This document shows, one piece after another, positions 27,387 through 39,892 of a stretch of 64,000 nt of DNA. The notes under the pieces are model-generated. The model had not been told where the DNA came from. It saw only the letters and a list, made by a program, of their open reading frames with translations, and ran no database searches. Each line of letters starts with the position of its first letter. Within the stretch, counting starts at the first letter, position 1. Origin of the DNA: Candidatus Caldarchaeum sp. (GTDB lineage Archaea; Thermoproteota; Nitrososphaeria_A; Caldarchaeales; Caldarchaeaceae); the NCBI GenBank assembly GCA_038885755.1, contig JAVZZH010000004.1:68430-132429 (forward strand), given 5' to 3'. The translations under genes were made by a program, and so were the position numbers.

Positions 27387-27737
27387 TTGCTTATGGTGTC
27401 GTGCCGGGTTTGCGGTGAATCGGTTGCCTACGTCCTTCTAAGAATGGAGATAGCTAGGTGTTCTAAGGGCCATGAGTTAGGGACGTGGGTTGCGTGCGGC
27501 AACGACAAGGAAAGCCATGTCTACTTGAGGACGGGTGAATCTCCCTGCCCCGTCTGCGGCGTAAACACGTACACACGCATGGCTAAAGGCGTGAAGGTCA
27601 AGTGCATGCATGTGGGGCCTTCGGGCCCGTGCCTCTACCCCTACTACAGCTGGCTTGAGGACGGCCCGCCGTGCCACATGAACCATCTGTCGAAGATCGT
27701 AGTCGTGAAGCATGAAGTTGAGGCTAAAGCTCCATGA
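27387..27737 (+). CDS. cysteine-rich (zinc-ribbon-like) hypothetical protein
   Basis: 116 aa with CRVCG, CSKGH, CPVCG and further Cys/His residues. It abuts the ilvE stop and overlaps the tsaC start by 26 nt. Confidence 0.45.
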   Translation: MLMVSCRVCGESVAYVLLRMEIARCSKGHELGTWVACGNDKESHVYLRTGESPCPVCGVNTYTRMAKGVKVKCMHVGPSGPCLYPYYSWLEDGPPCHMNHLSKIVVVKHEVEAKAP

Positions 27738-28323
27738 GGCGGTAGCTAAAGCCGCGGAGGCGGTGGCTAGGGGGGGCGTGGTTGTCTACCCTACGGAGAC
27801 TGTTTACGGTATTGGATGCAGAGTTTTCGACGCCAAAGCCGTCGAGAGGGTGATGATGATTAAACGGCGTGAAGAAAAGCCGTCGCCGGTTCTGGTCTCA
27901 GACTTCGACCAACTGGTCGAAGTCGCTAGGCCCAACGACAGCGAGCTAGAAGCCTGCTTTAGGCTTTGGCCCGGACCAGTTACTATCGTCATGGAGAAGG
28001 CACCCCAGCTGCCGCCCGTCGTGACTGCGGGGAGGGCCACGGTCGGTGTCAGGATGCCGGCAAACGCCGCGGCCCTGTCTTTAATCCAAAAGTCCGGCAC
28101 CCCTCTGCTCGGAACGAGCGCCAACATCTCCGGAAAGCCTGCGGCGACGTCTCTGGACTTGGTCGAGCCCGAGATAATCAAAATGGTTGACTGCGTCGTA
28201 GACGGCGGCAGGACATTCTACGGAAAACCTTCAACAGTAATTGAGCTGGTTGACGGAGAGGTCAGGGTCGTGCGGGAGGGGGCTTGGACTGTTGAAGAGA
28301 TCCGCTCGAGGCTTAAGAGCTAG
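27712..28323 (+). CDS. tsaC: L-threonylcarbamoyladenylate synthase, YrdC-domain-only form (TsaC/Sua5)
   Basis: GGVVVYPTETVYGIGC, PSPVLV and GTSANISG motifs. 203 aa. Confidence 0.85.
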   Translation: MKLRLKLHEAVAKAAEAVARGGVVVYPTETVYGIGCRVFDAKAVERVMMIKRREEKPSPVLVSDFDQLVEVARPNDSELEACFRLWPGPVTIVMEKAPQLPPVVTAGRATVGVRMPANAAALSLIQKSGTPLLGTSANISGKPAATSLDLVEPEIIKMVDCVVDGGRTFYGKPSTVIELVDGEVRVVREGAWTVEEIRSRLKS

Positions 28324-28865
28324 AGGAGAGTTTCCGCCATCCTCTGCATAATCATCATCTTAACCGCCTTCTCCCTGTTCTCAGCCTGCACGGCGCTCAA
28401 CTGTTTCTCCTCTATGCCGTAGAGGTTCATCAGCCGCTCTGTCTTCCCCTCGTCAGGAGCGAGGTCAACAAGCCTTCCCGCCAGCTCGACAACTCTTAAG
28501 GCCGTCTGCACGGTTTGAGGCTCGCTCCTGCCTACCGTGAAGAAGACAGCTCTTTTACTATTCTCCTTGAGCCCAACCCGTCGAATGGCTTCATCAAGCT
28601 GAGTTGTGGCCGCAAGCTTCAGCAGAACCTCGTTCGAAACCCGTTTAGCTCTCTGATAAGGCGTTCCGTAAACGATTACGGCGTTCAGGAAAGCTGCGTC
28701 GAAGACATCCCAATCCAGCACAACATCAGGGTCTACGAGCTGCGTGTTTTCGAACGACCTCAGAACTTCCTCCACCAGCTCGGAAGGGGAGGTGTTCATC
28801 AACTCCACGACGCCTGCGGCACAGTAAAACCCCCTAGCGTGAACTACACGCATCCCCGCCACCAT
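28320..28865 (-). CDS. cgi121: KEOPS complex subunit Cgi121
   Basis: About 180 aa. The pattern ...EVLLKLAATTQLDEAIRRVGLKENSKRAVFFTVG... and C-terminal LMNLYGIEE...AVKMMIMQRMAETLL parallels archaeal Cgi121 as I recall it. Confidence 0.6.
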   Translation of the reverse strand: MVAGMRVVHARGFYCAAGVVELMNTSPSELVEEVLRSFENTQLVDPDVVLDWDVFDAAFLNAVIVYGTPYQRAKRVSNEVLLKLAATTQLDEAIRRVGLKENSKRAVFFTVGRSEPQTVQTALRVVELAGRLVDLAPDEGKTERLMNLYGIEEKQLSAVQAENREKAVKMMIMQRMAETLL

Positions 28866-29172
28866 GTATTGAAGGGATCAGGCTGAGAACGTCCTCGTCT
28901 CCAACCTCCGTGTCGAGCCACGACGTATACCGGACGTCGGCGCCGTTGACGAGTATGAGCACCCCCGGCTGGGGATTCCCATGGTCGTCGACAACATGCC
29001 GTCTAACCCTCTCGTCCAGAAGCTCGAGAACATCCCTAAGCCTCAACCTCCCCTCAACCTTAAGACTCAACTCCTTCAAACCGGAGGCCGACCTTAAAGG
29101 CCCGAACAACTCAACCTTCAACGTGTCTTGGCCGGCGTCTTTTTTAAAATGTTTATCGCCGTCGCGATGCAA
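28834..29172 (-). CDS. MoaD/ThiS/Urm1-like ubiquitin-fold protein with residues after the Gly-Gly
   Basis: LKVELFGPLRSASG...GVLILVNGADV...LDTEVGDEDVLSLIPSIHGG matches the archaeal MoaD-family pattern. The ORF continues GDACSSR after GG. An alternative TTG start at 29121 gives the canonical N-terminus. Confidence 0.65.
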   Translation of the reverse strand: MHRDGDKHFKKDAGQDTLKVELFGPLRSASGLKELSLKVEGRLRLRDVLELLDERVRRHVVDDHGNPQPGVLILVNGADVRYTSWLDTEVGDEDVLSLIPSIHGGGDACSSR

Positions 29173-29205
29173 GATTTTTATCCAGTGCTCTTATACGGGT
29201 TCCCC

Positions 29206-29709
29206 ATGAGAATACCCGAGGAGAGGATAAGCCTATTCTTCCAGATGGAGGAGAGGTATAAGGCGAGGGACGTAGAGTTCTTCAAAAGCCTTCTCAAGCA
29301 TGAAGACTTCACGGTTAGGGCTAGGGCAACATGTATTTTGGCAGAGCTTGGTGGGAGAGGCTGCGTCGAAGACCTCGCCGACGTCCTTCTTCACGACGAA
29401 AACCCCATCGTCAGACACGAAGCTGCCTACAGCTTGGGGCAGCTTGGTTTCAGGGAAGCCATTTCCTACTTGGTGGAGTCGATGAAGCGCGACCCGCATC
29501 CAATCGTTCGCCACGAATCCGCCATAGCTCTGGGAGTGATAGGCAGGACCGACTGCTGGGATGATTTGATGAAGGTTTTGGAAGACCCTTCTCCCGAGGT
29601 CGTTGACTCGGCGGTCATAGCGCTGAGCAACATCGAGTTCTGCAGAAGGCTCTTCAGCAATCCTGTCGATGCGGAGGCGGCGGAGTTCGCACGCAAGACA
29701 GGCGGATGA
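29206..29709 (+). CDS. four-HEAT-repeat protein resembling one half of deoxyhypusine hydroxylase
   Basis: PBS-lyase/HEAT-like repeats. Two consecutive repeats carry His-Glu motifs (VRHEAAYSLGQLG and VRHESAIALGVIG) 32 residues apart. The ATG at 29206 is preferred, since a TATA-like gatttttatcc lies about 27 nt upstream. Confidence 0.6.
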   Translation: MRIPEERISLFFQMEERYKARDVEFFKSLLKHEDFTVRARATCILAELGGRGCVEDLADVLLHDENPIVRHEAAYSLGQLGFREAISYLVESMKRDPHPIVRHESAIALGVIGRTDCWDDLMKVLEDPSPEVVDSAVIALSNIEFCRRLFSNPVDAEAAEFARKTGG

Positions 29710-29740: not shown

Positions 29741-32008
29741 TTGATGCTGGTTGGTAAACCCCTTAAAAGAATTAACGACAGGAAGTTTCTCCAAGGCCTG
29801 GCGACGTATGTCTCGGACATAAGTCTGCCGGGCATGGTTTACATGCATGTAGTCAGAAGCCGCTACGCCCATGCATGGATAAAGGAAGTTGACGTGAGCA
29901 AGGCCGTCAAGCAGGGTGTTTTAGCGGCCTACACCCACAGAGACCTCGAGCCGATTGAGATCGACGTCGAGGAGAAAGCGGGGGACGCATATCCAGCTCA
30001 TCAGAAGATTCTAGCCGACCGGAAGGCGAGATACGTGGGAGAGCCGGTCGCCGTCGTGGTGTCCGAATCATACTCCAGAGGAGTTGACGCAGCCGAGGAA
30101 GTGCAGGTTTTTTACGAGCCGTTGAAGCCCGTTATGACGCCTGAAGAAGCCTTAGACCCCGGCGCTCCTCTAATCCACGAGCATCTAACCTCTAACATCT
30201 ACTTCAGAACGTCTAGAATGGTCGGCGACGTCGACGAAGCTTTCAGCAAAGCCGACGAAGTGGTCTCGGCTAGTTTCAAGATACAGAGGCTTGCGCCGTC
30301 CTCGATGGAAACAAGAGGCGTTGTGGCTTCATACAACCCGTCAACCGACTCCTACACAGTCTACATCTCATCGCAGAACCCTCACAAGGTAAGAGAGTTT
30401 ATCGCAAAAAAGCTCGGAGTCGGCCAGAACTCTGTAAGGGTGGTTGCTCCAGACGTCGGCGGCGGGTTCGGCTCGAAGCTGAACATCTATCCCGAGGACT
30501 TGCTAGCCCCGATTCTGTCTAAGAAACTCCGCAGACCCGTGGCGTGGTTTGAGACGAGGATGGAGAACTTCACGTCAACAAGCCATGGCCGGAGCATGCA
30601 TGGCAGGGTTGAGCTGGCTGCCTCCCGCAGCGGCAGGATACTGGGGCTGAAGGCTGAGACCACGGCTGACATAGGAGCTTACTCCTACATCTATTCAAGA
30701 AACATGTCTTCGAGCGTCCTAAGAATGATGACCGGCTGCTACAAGATAAGAAACGTGCAGGTCAAGGCGTTAGGTGTCTACACAAACAAAACTCCGATCG
30801 CACCTTACAGGGGTGCTGGAAGGCCTGAAGCATCCTATTTCATAGAGAGAGCCGTCGACAGGCTGGCGTCTAAACTGGGCCTCGACCCTGCAGACGTAAG
30901 AAAGACTAACTTCATCAAGCCCGAAGATTTCCCTTACGACAACGGAGTCGGCTCGACCTACGACACAGGGGACTACGGAAAAGCCCTAGACAAGCTTCTG
31001 CACATCTCGAACTACGGCGAGCTGAGAAGGCAGCAGCGTGAGATGCGGTCCACGGGTCGTTATCTGGGAATAGGCATCTCAACTTACGTCGAGGTCTGCA
31101 ACTTCCTCCACCAGCCGGCCTACGTGCGGGTCGAGCCAGACGGGTCCGTGCATGTTTACAGCGGGACGTCGCCGCATGGGCAGGGAGACGAAACAGCCTT
31201 CGCCCAGATCGTCTCCGACACGCTGGGAGTGCCGGTCGAAAAGATAACAGTCGTGCACAGCGACACGGCGCTGGGTCCCCCTGGCGGCGGAACGGCGGGA
31301 AGCTGGACGCTTTCATCAGGCGGAAACGCTGTTCTTAAAGCCTGCGTGAAAGTGCGTGAGAAGATGACCCGTATCGCCGCCCACATGCTTGAGTGCCGTG
31401 TCGAGGACCTTCTCTTTGAACGAGGAGCATTTATGGTGAAGGACGACCCCAGCAGGAGAGTATACGTCGAGGATGTCGCTGAAGCAGCCTACGACCCAGA
31501 CAGCCTTCCCGAGGACGTGGAGCCCGGGCTTGAAGCGCTTGAACACTACGTCCCAGAGTTAACCTACCCGTTCGGAGCACATCTCGCCGTCGTTGAAGTC
31601 GACCCGGAGACAGGCAGAGTCTTCATACGCAAGATCGTGATGGTCAACGACTGCGGCGAAGTGATCAACCCCATGCTTGTCGAAGGACAGGTCATCGGAG
31701 GCGCTGCACAGGCCATAGGCCAGGCCCTCTACGAAAGCCTCGAGTTCGGGGAGGACGGGTCTCCTCTGGTCTCCAGCTTCGCGGACTACTTGATTCCCAG
31801 CTCCACGGAGATTCCGGAGATAGTCGCCGAGAGAACGGTGACTCCTGCGAACAACCCGCTCAAGGCGAAGGGCGTGGGCGAGGCGTCGACAATCGGGCTC
31901 ACGCAGGCTATCGTCAACGCTGTCGAGGACGCTATCGGGAAGCCGGTCGACGAAACACCTCTAACACCATTCAGAGTTTGGATAGTTTTAAAGAGTGGTG
32001 GTCGCTGA
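29741..32008 (+). CDS. molybdopterin-binding large subunit, xanthine dehydrogenase/CoxL family (form II CoxL/CutL-like)
   Basis: 755 aa. The active-site loop APYRGAGRPE (AYRGAGR type) and C-terminal KGVGEAS are present. Confidence 0.8.
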   Translation: MMLVGKPLKRINDRKFLQGLATYVSDISLPGMVYMHVVRSRYAHAWIKEVDVSKAVKQGVLAAYTHRDLEPIEIDVEEKAGDAYPAHQKILADRKARYVGEPVAVVVSESYSRGVDAAEEVQVFYEPLKPVMTPEEALDPGAPLIHEHLTSNIYFRTSRMVGDVDEAFSKADEVVSASFKIQRLAPSSMETRGVVASYNPSTDSYTVYISSQNPHKVREFIAKKLGVGQNSVRVVAPDVGGGFGSKLNIYPEDLLAPILSKKLRRPVAWFETRMENFTSTSHGRSMHGRVELAASRSGRILGLKAETTADIGAYSYIYSRNMSSSVLRMMTGCYKIRNVQVKALGVYTNKTPIAPYRGAGRPEASYFIERAVDRLASKLGLDPADVRKTNFIKPEDFPYDNGVGSTYDTGDYGKALDKLLHISNYGELRRQQREMRSTGRYLGIGISTYVEVCNFLHQPAYVRVEPDGSVHVYSGTSPHGQGDETAFAQIVSDTLGVPVEKITVVHSDTALGPPGGGTAGSWTLSSGGNAVLKACVKVREKMTRIAAHMLECRVEDLLFERGAFMVKDDPSRRVYVEDVAEAAYDPDSLPEDVEPGLEALEHYVPELTYPFGAHLAVVEVDPETGRVFIRKIVMVNDCGEVINPMLVEGQVIGGAAQAIGQALYESLEFGEDGSPLVSSFADYLIPSSTEIPEIVAERTVTPANNPLKAKGVGEASTIGLTQAIVNAVEDAIGKPVDETPLTPFRVWIVLKSGGR

Positions 32009-32041
32009 AATACAGCTATAAGCAACACCGCTATAACTAAA

Positions 32042-32506
32042 TTGATGACAGGCGGCCGTGTTGTCCGGGAGTTCTCGTTCAAGCTAAACGGCCAACCCGT
32101 CTCGGTGAAAGCCCCGCCCGCGTACACCCTGCTCGAAACGCTCAGATACGTTCTCAAGCTTACGGGGACTAAGGATGGATGCAGCAGCGGGGACTGCGGA
32201 GCCTGCACGGTTCTTCTTAACGGGAGAGCGGTGCATTCATGCCTTACGCTAACGGCTCAGGTGCAGGGGATGGATGTTGTCACTGTTGAGGGGGCAGACC
32301 CAAGAATCGTCGAAGCGTTCGCTTCTGAGGGAGCGGTCCAGTGCGGCTACTGCACGCCCGGCCTGGTGATGGCTACGGAAGACCTGCTGAGGGAGAATCC
32401 GAAGCCCTCGACGGATGATATCAGGGAGAGTTTGCGGGGAAACCTTTGCAGATGCACGGGCTACGTCAAGATAGTCAAGGCGGTGAAGACAGCAGCAGGT
32501 GTTTAG
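32042..32506 (+). CDS. (2Fe-2S)-binding small subunit of molybdo-hydroxylase (CoxS/CutS-like)
   Basis: GCSSGDCGACTV and CGYCTPG...CRCTGY cluster motifs. 154 aa. Confidence 0.9.
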   Translation: MMTGGRVVREFSFKLNGQPVSVKAPPAYTLLETLRYVLKLTGTKDGCSSGDCGACTVLLNGRAVHSCLTLTAQVQGMDVVTVEGADPRIVEAFASEGAVQCGYCTPGLVMATEDLLRENPKPSTDDIRESLRGNLCRCTGYVKIVKAVKTAAGV

Positions 32507-32509
32507 CCG

Positions 32510-33388
32510 ATGCGTTCTCTGGCAGACGTTGACGTTCTATCGCCCAAGTCTCTGGATGAAGCTCTGCATCTCCTAAGCGAGAGAGCTGGAAGGGTTAGGG
32601 TGTTGGCTGGAGGAACAGACCTCGTCGTCCAGATGAAGCACGGCGTCGTGGATAAGATGGACCTTATCAACATCTACGGGCTGGAGGAGCTACGGTACAT
32701 AAGGCTCGAAGATGCCGTCGTCAAACTGGGAGCCCTGATAGACTTCTCATCAATCGTCAAATCACCCATAATACGGAGGTCAGCCCCAGTCCTCGCTGAA
32801 GCCTGTTCGACGATAGGCTCAACCCAGATCCTCAACAAAGCGACCATAGCAGGCAACATAGTCAACGCATCACCGGCAGCCGACTCGCTCCCAGCCCTCT
32901 ACGTCTTGGAGGCGAATCTTCTTCTGAGAAGCAGAAGCTCGTCGAGAACGGTTGCTGTCAGAGATTTCTACAAGGGATACAAGATGCTTGACCTCAAGCC
33001 CGATGAGCTGCTTGTAGAGGTTTCATTCAACCAGCTTACGGAAGCCCAGTATGGGAAGTTCTTCAAGCACGGGCTTAGGCAGGGAGACGCCATAGCCGTG
33101 GTTAACGGAGCAGTCCTCATCGAGTGGGATGAAGAGTCGAGGACTGTTTCGGACGCCAGAGTAGCTCTGGGAGCTGTGGCGCCGACTGTGGTGAGGGCTG
33201 AAAAGACCGAGGAGATCCTGAGAGGAAGCAGGCTCGACAAAGAAACCATTGAGAGGGCGGCGGAGGCCGTCCAGCGGTCCATAAACCCCATAGACGACGT
33301 CAGGGGCTCTGCTGCTTACAGGCGTGAGCTCGCCACCAACTACGTCTACATGACCCTGCTGCATCTCGCGGGGCTGGTTGGACATTGA
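32510..33388 (+). CDS. FAD-binding medium subunit of molybdo-hydroxylase (CoxM/CutM-like)
   Basis: LAGGTDLVVQMK and ATIAGNIVNASPAADS motifs. 292 aa. Confidence 0.85.
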   Translation: MRSLADVDVLSPKSLDEALHLLSERAGRVRVLAGGTDLVVQMKHGVVDKMDLINIYGLEELRYIRLEDAVVKLGALIDFSSIVKSPIIRRSAPVLAEACSTIGSTQILNKATIAGNIVNASPAADSLPALYVLEANLLLRSRSSSRTVAVRDFYKGYKMLDLKPDELLVEVSFNQLTEAQYGKFFKHGLRQGDAIAVVNGAVLIEWDEESRTVSDARVALGAVAPTVVRAEKTEEILRGSRLDKETIERAAEAVQRSINPIDDVRGSAAYRRELATNYVYMTLLHLAGLVGH

Positions 33389-35646
33389 CGGTCGAAGCTA
33401 AGTGGGTCGGCCGCCGGATAGCCAGAAGAGACGCGTATGAGAAAGCGTCTGGGAAAACCAAGTTCGCCTCCGACATCGTTCTCGATGACTGTCTCTGGGT
33501 CGCGACGCTTCGGAGCAAGCATCCACACGCTCGAATCCTCAACATAGACGTGTCCAAGGCCGCTCGAATGTCCGGCGTCGCAGGGGTTTTCACCCACCGG
33601 GATGTTCCGAACAACCGATACGGCTTGTTTGTCAAGGACAGGCCTGTACTGTGCGACGACCGGGTAAGGTACATAGGAGACCCGGTGGCGCTTGTAGCTG
33701 CGGAGTCGAGGGAGGAGGCTGAGGAAGCACTCGGAGAGATCAGGGTGGACTACGAGCCCCTACCCGTTGTGTCAGACCCCTTTGAGGCCATGAAGCCTTC
33801 AAGCTTCAAGATACACGAGAACGGCAACATCTGCAGAAGCACGAGAATAGCTTACGGCGATGTTGAAAAAGGCTTTCAACAATCAAGCGCCATCGTCGAG
33901 AACACCTACAGGACATGGCCACAGATCCATGCCTATCTCGAGACCGAGGCGGGGATCTCCTACATAGATGAACAAGGAAGAATAACAGTCGTAGCCGGCG
34001 GGCAGTCTCCCTACAGAGACCATCACGAAATAGTTTCCACGCTAAACCTGCCACCCGAGAAGGTGAGGGTCGTGATACCTCACGTCGGAGGAGCTTTCGG
34101 CGGGAAAGACGACATATCTGTCCAGATACATCTCGCCCTCGTTACTTTGAAGACAGGAAGGCCTGCTAGGCTTGTATGGAGCAGGGAGGAGTCGACCCTA
34201 GCGGGCACGAAGAGACATCCGTCTATCGTGAGGATGAAGACGGGGGCGTCGTCGGACGGCAGGCTGACAGCCAACGTCGTCGAGATAGTTTACGACACGG
34301 GAGCCTACTCAGCCCTAGGTCCAGCTGTTCTGGACGTAGCGATGGAGACTTGCAACGGCCCCTACAGAATACCCAACATAGAGGTCAAGGCATGGCTTGT
34401 ATACACGAACAACATGGTCGCATCAGCTTTCAGAGGCTTCGGAGCTCCTCAAGTCCACTTCGCCATGGAGCAGCAGATCGACCAGCTTGCGGAGGAGCTG
34501 GGGTATGACCCGATAGAATTCAGGCTGTTGAACGTTGTCAGGAAAGGAGATTACGGAGTTTTCGGGAACAAGCTGGTTGGAAGCGTCGGCATCGCTAAAT
34601 GCCTCGAGGCCTTGAGAGACCATACTGTCTGGAGGGAGAGGGAGAGGCTGAAGAGGGAGCCTACGGCTCCGTGGATAAAGCGCGGAGTTGGTGTTGCAGC
34701 GGCCATCAAGGGCTACACGCTTGGAGCTCTTCCTGACAAGGGCAGCGTGGGGCTTGAGCTGAAGATGGACGGAGGGTTCATAGTAAGGGGCAGCTTTACA
34801 GAAATAGGTCAGGGAGTTGTCCAGGCAATAGCTCAGCTGGCCGCCGAGGCTCTGAACACAAGCATCGACAAAATCGAGGTCATATTCGCAGACACCGCCG
34901 AGACCCCCGACACAAGCGTGACATCAGCATCACGCCAGCTGTTCCTAGCCGGGAACGCGTTAAGAAAGGCTGCATCCCTGATGGTCGAAGCCATGAAGAA
35001 GGGGCTGGAGATTCACTTCGGAAGGCCTGTCGGCGAGGTCTCCCTGCACAACGGAGCCGTCAGAACTTCAACAGGCCTAGACATGCCGTTGAGCAGAGTG
35101 GCAGAGATACTTGAGGAGACGGGGGTGGGGAGGAGTGTTGTTGGGGTCTATGAGGTTCCTCGAGTAGAGCCCATTCCCGGGTCTCTCGAGATACCGCATC
35201 TCTTCTACATGTTCGGGGCAACCCTCGTTCTTGTTGAGCTCAACACTTTGACCGGAGCTGTTTCTGTGAAAAACTTAGTCACAGCCGCCGACGTAGGGAG
35301 AGTTGTTAACCCTCAAACCTTGACAGGCCAGATGGAGGGAGCGGCAGCACAAGGCATCGGCTTCGCACTCCTCGAGGACGTGAAAATCCGAGACGGAAAG
35401 CTGCTGACAACCAACCTCTCAACCTACCTCATACCCTCGATTAAGGATGTTCCAGACATAGAGGTGATTCCCGTGGAAGACCACGAGGAGTCGGGGCCCT
35501 TCGGAGCCAAGGGCATCGGGGAGATCGGCATAATATCAGTCGCCCCTGCTATCGCCAACGCAATCCACGACGCCGCCGGAGTGAGGCCTCTGGAGGCCCC
35601 GATGACGCCTGAAAGGGTTTACTGGCTTGTTAAACAACGCAGATAA
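33385..35646 (+). CDS. second molybdopterin-binding large subunit (xanthine dehydrogenase/aldehyde oxidoreductase type)
   Basis: 753 aa. The AFRGFGAPQ loop and KGIGEIG catalytic Glu region are present. The TTG start overlaps the upstream TGA (TTGA). Confidence 0.8.
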   Translation: MTVEAKWVGRRIARRDAYEKASGKTKFASDIVLDDCLWVATLRSKHPHARILNIDVSKAARMSGVAGVFTHRDVPNNRYGLFVKDRPVLCDDRVRYIGDPVALVAAESREEAEEALGEIRVDYEPLPVVSDPFEAMKPSSFKIHENGNICRSTRIAYGDVEKGFQQSSAIVENTYRTWPQIHAYLETEAGISYIDEQGRITVVAGGQSPYRDHHEIVSTLNLPPEKVRVVIPHVGGAFGGKDDISVQIHLALVTLKTGRPARLVWSREESTLAGTKRHPSIVRMKTGASSDGRLTANVVEIVYDTGAYSALGPAVLDVAMETCNGPYRIPNIEVKAWLVYTNNMVASAFRGFGAPQVHFAMEQQIDQLAEELGYDPIEFRLLNVVRKGDYGVFGNKLVGSVGIAKCLEALRDHTVWRERERLKREPTAPWIKRGVGVAAAIKGYTLGALPDKGSVGLELKMDGGFIVRGSFTEIGQGVVQAIAQLAAEALNTSIDKIEVIFADTAETPDTSVTSASRQLFLAGNALRKAASLMVEAMKKGLEIHFGRPVGEVSLHNGAVRTSTGLDMPLSRVAEILEETGVGRSVVGVYEVPRVEPIPGSLEIPHLFYMFGATLVLVELNTLTGAVSVKNLVTAADVGRVVNPQTLTGQMEGAAAQGIGFALLEDVKIRDGKLLTTNLSTYLIPSIKDVPDIEVIPVEDHEESGPFGAKGIGEIGIISVAPAIANAIHDAAGVRPLEAPMTPERVYWLVKQRR

Positions 35647-35726: not shown

Positions 35727-36935
35727 TTGGCTAGGGTGGTCGTCAAGTTCGGCGGTTCTGTATTGTCTGACGACGACAGCATCAGGAAAGCAGCAGAATA
35801 CGTTGAGAAACTGCGTCGAAGGGGAGAGGTGGTAGTCGTTGTTTCAGCTCTGAAAGGCGTGACAGACGAGCTTCTCCAGACAGTTCAGCGAATCAACCCT
35901 GAAGCATCGCCAGCCATGGTTGACGAAGTTCTAGCCATGGGGGAGAGGACCAGCGCAAGGCTGTTCGCAGTAGCTCTTCAGAAGCATGGGCTGCAGGCTG
36001 TCTTCATCGACCCGAGCATGGATGAATGGCCTATCGTGAGCGACGACAAGCACCTCGACTCAACGCCCATCCTAGAAGAATGCAGAACACGGGTTAGGAA
36101 TGGCCTAGAGAAGATGCTCAAGGCCGGCGTCGTGCCTGTTGTCTGCGGGTTCGTCGCGGTTTCGAAAACAGGCAAGATAACGACCATGGGCAGAGGAGGA
36201 AGCGACACTACGGCCTTGGTTCTCGCCAACTGCCTCGACGCCGAGGAAGTGATTCTAGTGAAGGATGTGGCAGGCGTGTATTCATCAGACCCGAAGAACG
36301 TCTCAAACACGAACGTCCTCGAGGTTTTGACAGTCGAAGAGGTTTTACAGCTAAGCAAGGGAGGAGCCAAGATAATCCACTCCAAAGCCTTGTCTTTCCT
36401 TCATCCACGTGGTAAGGTAAGGATAGGCTCGCTGGACAGCTTAGAAACAACCGGGACAGTCATAATAGGAGAGGACAGGCCGAGGCTAGAAGTAAGCCTC
36501 GACAACACGAACGCCACAATGGTGACTATTCTAGGCAGGTCGATGAAGGACCCCGAGAAGATCTCCGCAGCTGTGTCGGCTTTGAGAATGTCCGGTGCAA
36601 GGGTGCTCGCAGTATCCGTCGAGGAGGAGTCGATGATACTCTACTTGGACGGGGACGGCGATGTTGTCGAGAAGCTTCACGACTACTTCGTCGGCCACGG
36701 CTTGGGAAAGGCTGTGAGCCACTTTCCCCACCTAAGCCTCATCAGAATCTACGGCCCCATGCTTGAGGTCGTGCCTGGAATAGTTCACCGGGTTGTCCAG
36801 CCGCTAGCATCCAACGCCATCAACGTCTACGGAATCCTCACCATAAGCTCGTCCATCAGGATCTTCGTCTCCACGAGGGATGTGGAAAAGGCTGTTAGGC
36901 TAGTTAAACAGAGCGTCGAAGAGTTGAGCTCTTAG
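35727..36935 (+). CDS. aspartate kinase
   Basis: VVKFGGSVL N-terminus, an amino-acid kinase fold, and C-terminal ACT-like repeats. 402 aa. Confidence 0.8.
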   Translation: MARVVVKFGGSVLSDDDSIRKAAEYVEKLRRRGEVVVVVSALKGVTDELLQTVQRINPEASPAMVDEVLAMGERTSARLFAVALQKHGLQAVFIDPSMDEWPIVSDDKHLDSTPILEECRTRVRNGLEKMLKAGVVPVVCGFVAVSKTGKITTMGRGGSDTTALVLANCLDAEEVILVKDVAGVYSSDPKNVSNTNVLEVLTVEEVLQLSKGGAKIIHSKALSFLHPRGKVRIGSLDSLETTGTVIIGEDRPRLEVSLDNTNATMVTILGRSMKDPEKISAAVSALRMSGARVLAVSVEEESMILYLDGDGDVVEKLHDYFVGHGLGKAVSHFPHLSLIRIYGPMLEVVPGIVHRVVQPLASNAINVYGILTISSSIRIFVSTRDVEKAVRLVKQSVEELSS

Positions 36936-37855
36936 CCCTCCAGGGACTGGACCAGCCCGAGAGCGAGCAGGGGGAGGACGATCGTCGCGTCTCCCTTGAC
37001 GAACACCTGCTTAGACTTGGGCGAGACTTTGTGCCATGATACTGCTTCACGGGGTCTTGCGCCGCTGAGGCTTCCGTCATACTCGTCAGCCGCCGATATG
37101 TAGACGGCGTAGTCGAGACCCTCACCACCGAACTGAGACCACCAGAGGAGATGATGCTTGGATATGCCTCCGCCCACCAGAAGCCCTCCCTTCCTGCCAG
37201 CCTTCCACATCATCTCGTCGAGGAGGTCCATGTCTGCGACCAAGTCTACGTAAACACCTCTCTTACCTCCCTGAAGCCACATCTGGTACCCTACGGCGCC
37301 GTCAAATATCCCTGGAACGAACACCGGTATCTTGTTCCTCCAGCACCAGTAGAGGATAGAGCTCTCCGACCCAAGCCTCTCGCCAATCATCCAGCAAAGC
37401 CTGTGGCCCGCAACCCTCCCCTCAAGCCCAACTTCGTCGAGCAGGCCCTTCACCTCCTTCTCAACCACGACGCCGTAGCTCTCCTGGTCTATGAAGACGC
37501 TTCCAAGCCTGTGGATGTTCTTCTCGGCGAGCTGCCAGTCGTCGGCGTCGAAGCTTCCCTGCCTGTAGAAGGAGCGTGTGCGGGCGATGTCATGGTCTAA
37601 AGCGCCGCAGGTCGTCACCACGAGGTCGAAAAGCTTTCTCCGCAGAAGCTCCACCAACACTCCCCGAAGACCCGTGGCCACCAAGTTGCCTGTGAAGGAC
37701 AAGCCCCTCAGGCACGATTCATCCCTCACCATTTCGCTGAGAACCTCGAACGCACGGCCTACGTGCATGCCCATGAACCCGCCCATCCTAGACATCATCC
37801 TAAGCAGCTCGACCGCTGAGACTTCTCTACCTAGCCGGAGGTCTTCGACACGCAT
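36932..37855 (-). CDS. dys: deoxyhypusine synthase
   Basis: 307 aa. FTGNLVATGLRG, TTCGALDHD, GGGISKHH and DGSLSGARPREAVSWHK motifs are present. Confidence 0.85.
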   Translation of the reverse strand: MRVEDLRLGREVSAVELLRMMSRMGGFMGMHVGRAFEVLSEMVRDESCLRGLSFTGNLVATGLRGVLVELLRRKLFDLVVTTCGALDHDIARTRSFYRQGSFDADDWQLAEKNIHRLGSVFIDQESYGVVVEKEVKGLLDEVGLEGRVAGHRLCWMIGERLGSESSILYWCWRNKIPVFVPGIFDGAVGYQMWLQGGKRGVYVDLVADMDLLDEMMWKAGRKGGLLVGGGISKHHLLWWSQFGGEGLDYAVYISAADEYDGSLSGARPREAVSWHKVSPKSKQVFVKGDATIVLPLLALGLVQSLEG

Positions 37856-39788: not shown

Positions 39789-39892
39789 GCGGCGGTCGTC
39801 TAGCCTGGTAGGACACCAGCCTGCCACGCTGGGAGTTCCGCGCGCCGGCTCGCCGCGGGCCTGAGTCGCGGGTTCAAATCCCGCCCGCCGCA
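39789..39892 (+). tRNA. tRNA-Gly (anticodon GCC) interrupted by a ~30-nt non-canonical intron in the variable-loop/T-arm junction
   Basis: Acceptor GCGGCGG/CCGCCGC. Anticodon arm CCAGC-CTGCCAC-GCTGG. T arm GCGGG-TTCAAAT-CCCGC. 35 nt lie between the anticodon stem and the T stem where about 5 are expected. No CCA is encoded. Confidence 0.85.

Follow-up and report, generated by a model that had tools for sequence, protein, structure and literature searches.

Eukaryotic deoxyhypusine hydroxylase (DOHH; EC 1.14.99.29), of which human DOHH (PDB 4d4z) and yeast Lia1 are examples, is a chain of about 300 aa with eight HEAT repeats, arranged as a dyad of two four-repeat arms. In the human enzyme H56, H89, E90, H207, H240 and E241 anchor a diiron centre, E57 and E208 together with a conserved Gly (numbered G65/G214) help to bind the deoxyhypusine side chain, and a long-lived peroxo-diiron(III) species hydroxylates C2 of this side chain; no other substrate of DOHH is known (PMC9117371). 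Reviews up to 2021 describe archaea as possessing deoxyhypusine synthase (DHS) and no DOHH homologue, and hypusine itself has been reported in Sulfolobus, Acidianus, Pyrodictium and Thermoproteus, with deoxyhypusine in Euryarchaeota. Here we describe a gene located in a stretch of 64,000 nucleotides (hereafter the window) from a Candidatus Caldarchaeum sp. (Caldarchaeales; contig JAVZZH010000004.1, positions 68,430 to 132,429). Its product, a HEAT protein of half the size of DOHH, is probably a homodimeric, O2-dependent diiron deoxyhypusine hydroxylase, as judged by its homology to the eukaryotic enzyme.

The positions of the gene and of its conserved codons are given in Table 1. The orthologues begin at the same place, with a common M-[RK]-IPEER, which supports the ATG listed there as the start codon and not a TTG located upstream, at 29128. 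A protein identical to the product (100%) is known from a metagenome-assembled genome (MAG) of a Candidatus Caldarchaeum sp., and the AlphaFold2 model of the product (pLDDT 94.4, pTM 0.88) shows an N-terminal helix followed by four helical hairpins. A preliminary description of the stretch had predicted a four-repeat HEAT protein of 167 aa with two His-Glu pairs at these codons and 32 residues between the two His, and the open reading frame (ORF), its translation and the model all bear this out. In Pfam only the generic HEAT models are retrieved (HEAT, HEAT_2 and HEAT_PBS), with HEAT_2 at 93.7 bits (cut-off 27.7) and HEAT_PBS at 46.6 bits (cut-off 20.9), both above the gathering thresholds, while NCBIfam gives sub-threshold matches only, to phycobilisome-lyase-type proteins.

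The window protein and DOHH have in common the HEAT-hairpin fold, two His-Glu motifs in the same register per four-repeat unit (H71-E72 and H103-E104 in the window protein), the signatures Y/F-x-L-G-Q and A-L-G-x-I-G, and co-occurrence with DHS. The Glu and Gly that bind the substrate in DOHH, within the motif H-E-x-x-Y/F-x-L-G-Q, would correspond to E72 and G78. The differences are also clear. The window product is a single four-repeat arm and lacks the eight-HEAT dyad that DOHH forms in one chain, so that it would need to form a homodimer to build the diiron site that DOHH assembles within one chain. The two His are separated by 32 residues instead of 33, and the N-terminal helix and a C-terminal -TGG are found in the family of the window protein and not in DOHH. 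To our knowledge, this half-size and presumably homodimeric architecture would be new with respect to the known DOHHs.

Proteins of the generic PBS-lyase type (Pfam HEAT_2/HEAT_PBS; MTH187, 1te4; the CpcE/F lyase, 5n3u; E. coli YibA, 1oyz; and the designed alphaRep proteins) are of the same repeat class and length as the window protein, but they vary at the positions where its family has His-Glu, and we know of none that is a metal enzyme. We built a hidden Markov model (HMM) from 180 halves of 90 eukaryotic DOHHs, against which the window protein scored 81.2 bits (best domain, as for all scores with this model) and 120 members of its family between 71.5 and 94.5 bits, whereas among generic HEAT proteins the 148 with the best matches to the family profile had a median of 41.5 and a maximum of 62.1 bits. 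Along the same lines, hhalign matched the family to the alignment of eukaryotic DOHHs, at the C-terminal half, with a probability of 99.7% (E = 6e-26), and in BLASTP the window protein aligned with each of the two halves of DOHH (31% and 36% identity); the His-Glu pairs were in register in either case. Human DOHH (4d4z) was the best natural match in PDB searches with the single sequence (E = 3e-26) and with the family profile (E = 9e-37; the two halves at 66 and 61 bits, again with His-Glu in register), and it had the highest query-normalised template-modelling score (TM-score), 0.71, among the listed matches of a fold search. The natural HEAT proteins scored far lower against the family profile, with 43 bits for YibA, 34 for CpcE and 28 for MTH187. 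The idea that the protein is one half of DOHH and not a mere HEAT protein, advanced in the preliminary description, is thus upheld by both hhalign and the DOHH-half model. The human motifs on which that description relied are correct. The human DOHH sequence used for comparison gives 129.7 bits against the family profile, and that of PDB 4d4z 129.8.

The His-Glu pairs themselves are rare at these places in other HEAT repeats. In the 148 generic proteins, only 6 of 1635 repeats (0.4%) have His-Glu at the two equivalent variable positions, and of 716 pairs of adjacent repeats, 2 have it in both repeats. To judge from these frequencies, the His-Glu pairs are not a chance feature.

Their conservation within the family points the same way. 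The members are 160-170 aa long, with 65-89% identity in Caldarchaeales and about 50% to the members from Nitrosopumilaceae, Nitrosotenuis and Nitrososphaera. A scan of GTDB with one genome per species found a relative in at least 576 species genomes; the taxonomy of the family rests on the best 80 of these, all of them Nitrososphaeria, with obligately aerobic ammonia oxidisers among them. A scan of viral contigs gave no match. In an alignment of 16 sequences ranging from Caldarchaeales to Nitrosopumilaceae (A1), H71, E72, G78, H103 and E104 are invariant, and Gly78, His103 and Glu104 are so in another alignment (A2) as well. Both motifs, with the His pair 32 residues apart, were present in 118 of the 120 best matches; in another member the spacing is 49, owing to the duplication of a short segment, and the remaining one does not fit the pattern. 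The conservation of the pairs in orthologues, which the preliminary description had named as a check, was thus found. A second clade of half-size proteins comes from soil metagenomes (its named members are labelled Candidatus Bathyarchaeia archaeon by NCBI), and 117 of its 119 members keep both motifs 32 residues apart. The C-terminal end is more restricted: 119 of 120 Caldarchaeales and Nitrososphaerales members finish in -TGG (...F-[AT]-[KR]-x-T-G-G), a tail that is absent from the soil clade, from eukaryotic DOHH and from the full-size archaeal proteins described below.

Natural fusions of two copies bear on how a half-size protein could make a complete site. When the family profile was run against a representative library of 1.84 billion proteins, the best 150 matches were almost all giant multi-repeat HEAT proteins, and among the results was P0125, a natural protein of 363 aa in which two family copies are joined in tandem and four His-Glu pairs are present. 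A search of 5.8 billion proteins with P0125 retrieved a few family members and then bona fide DOHHs of eukaryotes (plants, fungi, red algae and animals). The same search retrieved proteins of about 280 aa with four His-Glu pairs and a spacing of 32 in each half (P0280, P0289, P0291, P0296, P0298, P0301, P0303 and P0336; loci L086 6001-6849 and L087 6001-6849). One of them, MCA9496351.1, is named as coming from a Nanoarchaeota archaeon (DPANN) MAG, and the contigs L086 and L087 carry archaeal PCNA and a NOG1-type GTPase. By their sequences, these DPANN proteins are archaeal full-length homologues of DOHH, which the literature that we searched does not mention. They are like the window protein in being archaeal, in the HEAT_PBS repeat class and in the spacing of 32, and differ from it in having two fused units, no -TGG, about 30% identity to its family, and PCNA and the NOG1-type GTPase instead of DHS as gene neighbours.

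In a neighbour-joining tree of the half-units, the N and C halves of the eukaryotic proteins group together, those of the DPANN proteins do likewise, and both halves of P0125 fall with the half-size proteins of Nitrososphaeria. Three independent duplication-fusions of a half-size ancestor appear to fit this tree, although it is crude and gene conversion or composition bias could mimic its pattern. The AlphaFold2 model of P0125 (pLDDT 85.8, pTM 0.85) matches human DOHH with a TM-score of 0.80, normalised to DOHH, and designed alphaRep and HEAT solenoid proteins with 0.52 at most; its input alignment contained eukaryotic DOHHs and might have biased it towards the dyad. The preliminary description had suggested that two halves could rebuild one diiron site, and both the tandem fusions and this match to the DOHH dyad lend support to it.

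The gene neighbourhoods provide another line of evidence. The DHS that had been announced 7 kb downstream of the half-size gene is real, as it exceeds the cut-off of the NCBIfam equivalog and is recognised by Pfam DS (Table 1). No aIF5A gene was found in the window by a search with the hypusine-loop motif. A relative with 74% identity (L091) has DHS 5 kb away in the same synteny, and there, as in the window, the molybdo-hydroxylase operon and an amino-acid kinase gene lie between the two. The association is closer in archaeon HR01, also of Caldarchaeales, where a gap of only 76 nt separates the orthologue (69% identity) from the gene of a 344-aa DHS paralogue, transcribed divergently, and the canonical DHS is about 1.1 kb away from the orthologue. 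This paralogue (L012 1888-2922, minus strand) is about 25% identical to the canonical DHS, reaches 401 bits with the best NCBIfam DHS model (cut-off 434) and is placed back-to-back with the canonical DHS and head-to-head with the DOHH-like gene; no copy of it was found in the window.

The gene for P0125 is found on a contig of about 41% G+C (Logan SRR21363124_14; L085 1-7903, L088 1-11903) on which hypusine-type genes are gathered within 7 kb. These code for a protein with an IF5A N domain and the loop KAGKHGG (Pfam 29.7 bits, cut-off 27.1), a DHS (in NCBIfam, 323 bits with the DHS model vs 129 with that of homospermidine synthase), an Orn/Arg decarboxylase, a CN-hydrolase, an agmatine deiminase, the tandem P0125 itself, which has a hydrophobic N-terminal extension, and a second IF5A-N-domain protein with the loop KTGKQGH (30.9 bits). 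Both loops are of a KxGKHG-like type. A TauD/GBBH-like dioxygenase and cNMP-binding proteins are encoded upstream. The whole looks like a self-contained hypusination-like system that would act on non-canonical substrates. A scan of metagenomes with P0125 gave two short single-copy Nitrosopumilales loci only, and no second copy of the cassette was found in it. With this cassette and the HR01 adjacency, the link to hypusine is stronger than was known when the gene was first described.

Putting these data together, the 167-aa product would fold into its four HEAT hairpins and two copies would pair as a dyad resembling the two arms of eukaryotic DOHH. In each chain one iron would be bound by His71, His103 and Glu104, so that a diiron centre would form where the two copies meet, Glu72 and Gly78 would contact and hold the deoxyhypusine side chain, and O2 would be the oxidant. 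We infer the homodimer, the iron binding, the dependence on O2, aIF5A as the substrate and the presence of hypusine in the organism from the homology to DOHH. We also suggest, somewhat more tentatively, that the half-size homodimer may be the ancestral form of DOHH, with O2-dependent formation of hypusine in Nitrososphaeria, from which the eukaryotic enzyme would have arisen by duplication and fusion, as would, independently, the proteins of DPANN and of the host of P0125.

Several observations weigh against a hydroxylase of this kind, besides the possible bias in the P0125 model. When both His-Glu pairs of the window protein were replaced by Ala-Ala, its score with the DOHH-half model fell to 60.2 bits, no better than the 62.2 bits of an idealised alphaRep, and alphaRep proteins are designed, idealised consensus repeats of the HEAT_PBS-type class. 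About 21 of the 81 bits are thus due to the two pairs and the remainder is generic similarity of the repeat class; because the score without the pairs drops to the alphaRep level, the signal specific to DOHH rests largely on four residues plus context. The family profile, in turn, scores a designed alphaRep (62 bits) about equal per domain to DOHH, and the profile comparison proposed in the preliminary description discriminated in one direction, in which the DOHH-half model separates the family from generic HEAT, and not in the other. In DOHH nothing corresponds to the conserved -TGG tail. Of the relatives examined, most (L001-L004, L089, L090, L094 and L095) show no linkage to DHS, and their neighbours are mostly unrelated housekeeping genes. 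The IF5A-like proteins of the P0125 cassette are atypical, with the N domain only and long acidic N-terminal extensions. Finally, our search of the literature found neither hypusine nor deoxyhypusine reported for any Nitrososphaeria.

Part of these observations could be accommodated if the protein were a DOHH-like metal enzyme with a substrate other than aIF5A, such as a polyamine-modified protein, a free polyamine or a small molecule. The lack of linkage to DHS or aIF5A in most relatives would be expected in that case, as would the N-terminal helix and the -TGG tail that DOHH does not have, and the IF5A-N-only proteins and the TauD/GBBH-like dioxygenase of the P0125 contig are suggestive of related chemistry on non-canonical targets. 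Still, the motif Glu and Gly that have been implicated in holding the deoxyhypusine side chain are invariant, the sole functional links seen go to DHS and to IF5A-like genes, and DOHH acts on nothing else as far as is known (PMC9117371), so we regard another substrate as rather unlikely.

More improbable, in our opinion, is a protein without catalytic activity, either a HEAT adaptor or a metal-binding chaperone or sensor, in which His-Glu would bind a partner or a single metal ion. Four residues invariant at the exact ligand positions of DOHH in two deep clades, positions that are hypervariable in generic repeats, are difficult to reconcile with such a role, and so are the repeated fusions to the architecture of DOHH and the cassette with DHS and IF5A-like genes. 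What speaks for it is that Pfam and NCBIfam give nothing but generic HEAT or phycobilisome-lyase-like models, that the family profile scores the alphaRep binders as well as DOHH, and that genes of another kind are found next to some members, namely a plastocyanin-like copper protein gene that overlaps the one of Nitrosopumilus ureiphilus and a redoxin gene in Nitrosopumilaceae. An accessory or maturation factor of the CoxL/S/M-type molybdo-hydroxylase operon, as the same orientation, the short gap and the repeated adjacency in L091 might suggest, is very improbable given the unrelated neighbours in HR01, other Caldarchaeales-type contigs, Nitrosopumilales and the soil clade and a T-rich TATA-like stretch within the gap that suggests separate transcription.

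We return to the hydroxylase and to how far it could answer the question of archaeal hypusine. The preliminary description proposed the gene as a candidate for the unassigned archaeal hydroxylase, and this is maintained only in part. The family is a strong candidate for Nitrososphaeria and, as far as sequence can tell, a plausible ancestor-type of the eukaryotic enzyme, but it does not solve the problem of archaeal hypusine in general. Among the named matches listed, which are the stronger ones, none was seen from Sulfolobales, Thermoproteales or Pyrodictium. Pyrodictium and Thermoproteus are anaerobes, and because the proposed enzyme depends on O2 it cannot be the hydroxylase of these genera, which must have another. 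Hypusine in Sulfolobales and in strict anaerobes like Pyrodictium would still require a different, probably O2-independent, enzyme. The claim that no archaeal DOHH had been assigned agrees with the published literature, in which our search found no paper tying DOHH or hypusine to Thaumarchaeota or Nitrosopumilus, but not with the automatic annotation of IMG, where many relatives are already labelled "deoxyhypusine monooxygenase". We did not accept this label as evidence, since a similar one is attached to an unrelated bacterial fragment of 71 aa. In any case, the family provides a testable hydroxylase candidate for a very abundant group of archaea, which comprises the ammonia oxidisers and the thermophiles related to them. 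Should the protein prove active, this would mean that a pair of identical small subunits can build the diiron site of DOHH, that hydroxylation is older than the eukaryotes, and that eukaryotic DOHH has a clear evolutionary origin.

Table 1. Features of the window around the half-size DOHH-like gene (positions within the window)
Feature	Position	Strand	Remarks
Sua5	27712-28323	+	
Cgi121	28320-28865	-	
ThiS/Urm1-like	28834-29172	-	Pfam ThiS 43 bits
TTTTTAT, TATA-box-like	29175-29181	+	About 28 nt upstream of the ATG; read from the sequence
Half-size DOHH-like HEAT protein gene	29206-29709	+	ATG to TGA ORF, 167 aa, stop codon included
His71-Glu72 codons (CAC GAA)	29416-29421	+	In NPIVRHEAAYSLGQLG; equivalent to H56-E57 and H207-E208 of human DOHH
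Gly78 codon, Y-S-L-G-Q motif	29437-29439	+	Seven residues past His71; aligns with the human DOHH Gly seven past H56/H207
His103-Glu104 codons (CAC GAA)	29512-29517	+	In HPIVRHESAIALGVIG; equivalent to H89-E90 and H240-E241 of human DOHH
Thr-Gly-Gly C-terminal tail	29698-29706	+	Conserved in the family
CoxL/S/M-type molybdo-hydroxylase operon	29741-35646	+	Starts 31 nt past the stop of the half-size gene
Deoxyhypusine synthase (DHS)	36932-37855	-	7.2 kb downstream; Pfam DS 321 bits; NCBIfam equivalog 390.5 bits, cut-off 350
tRNA	39789-39892	+	104 nt; Rfam 53 bits; missed by ARAGORN; probably intron-containing

The TATA-box-like stretch in front of the half-size gene may be a promoter of its own, giving a leaderless mRNA; the sigma-70 promoter scan does not apply to archaea. 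The gap to the molybdo-hydroxylase operon is as had been described, and apart from the window L091 is the one place where this adjacency was seen; a functional meaning is unlikely. The operon consists of two CoxL-like large subunits (755 and 753 aa) that flank the [2Fe-2S] (154 aa) and FAD (292 aa) subunits, while that of L091 has a single large subunit, the window having an extra paralogue.

On the other side, the ThiS/Urm1-like gene was considered as a conserved partner and discarded because the small divergent ORFs upstream of the orthologues are not homologous to it. Its product ends in ...IHGGGDACSSR, eight residues past the Gly-Gly at which the L091 orthologue stops (...IHGG*), and the extra tail could be of the precursor type or a local sequence difference.

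In the soil clade (L094 8850-11643, L095 5989-11605), the half-size gene is directly 5' of a gene for a Trm5/TYW2-type tRNA methyltransferase, with a 4-nt overlap between the two in L094, and a 259-aa TP_methylase found nearby could be a diphthine synthase. Together with Sua5 and Cgi121 in the window, this amounts to a loose recurring neighbourhood of translation-related modification genes, which may be a coincidence. In Nitrosopumilaceae (L001 5030-5695, L092 834-1493, L093 452-1108) a divergent redoxin gene of the thioredoxin/AhpC-like type is consistently found ahead of the family gene, and in one database entry, P0278, the redoxin and the family protein seem to have been joined into a chimaera.

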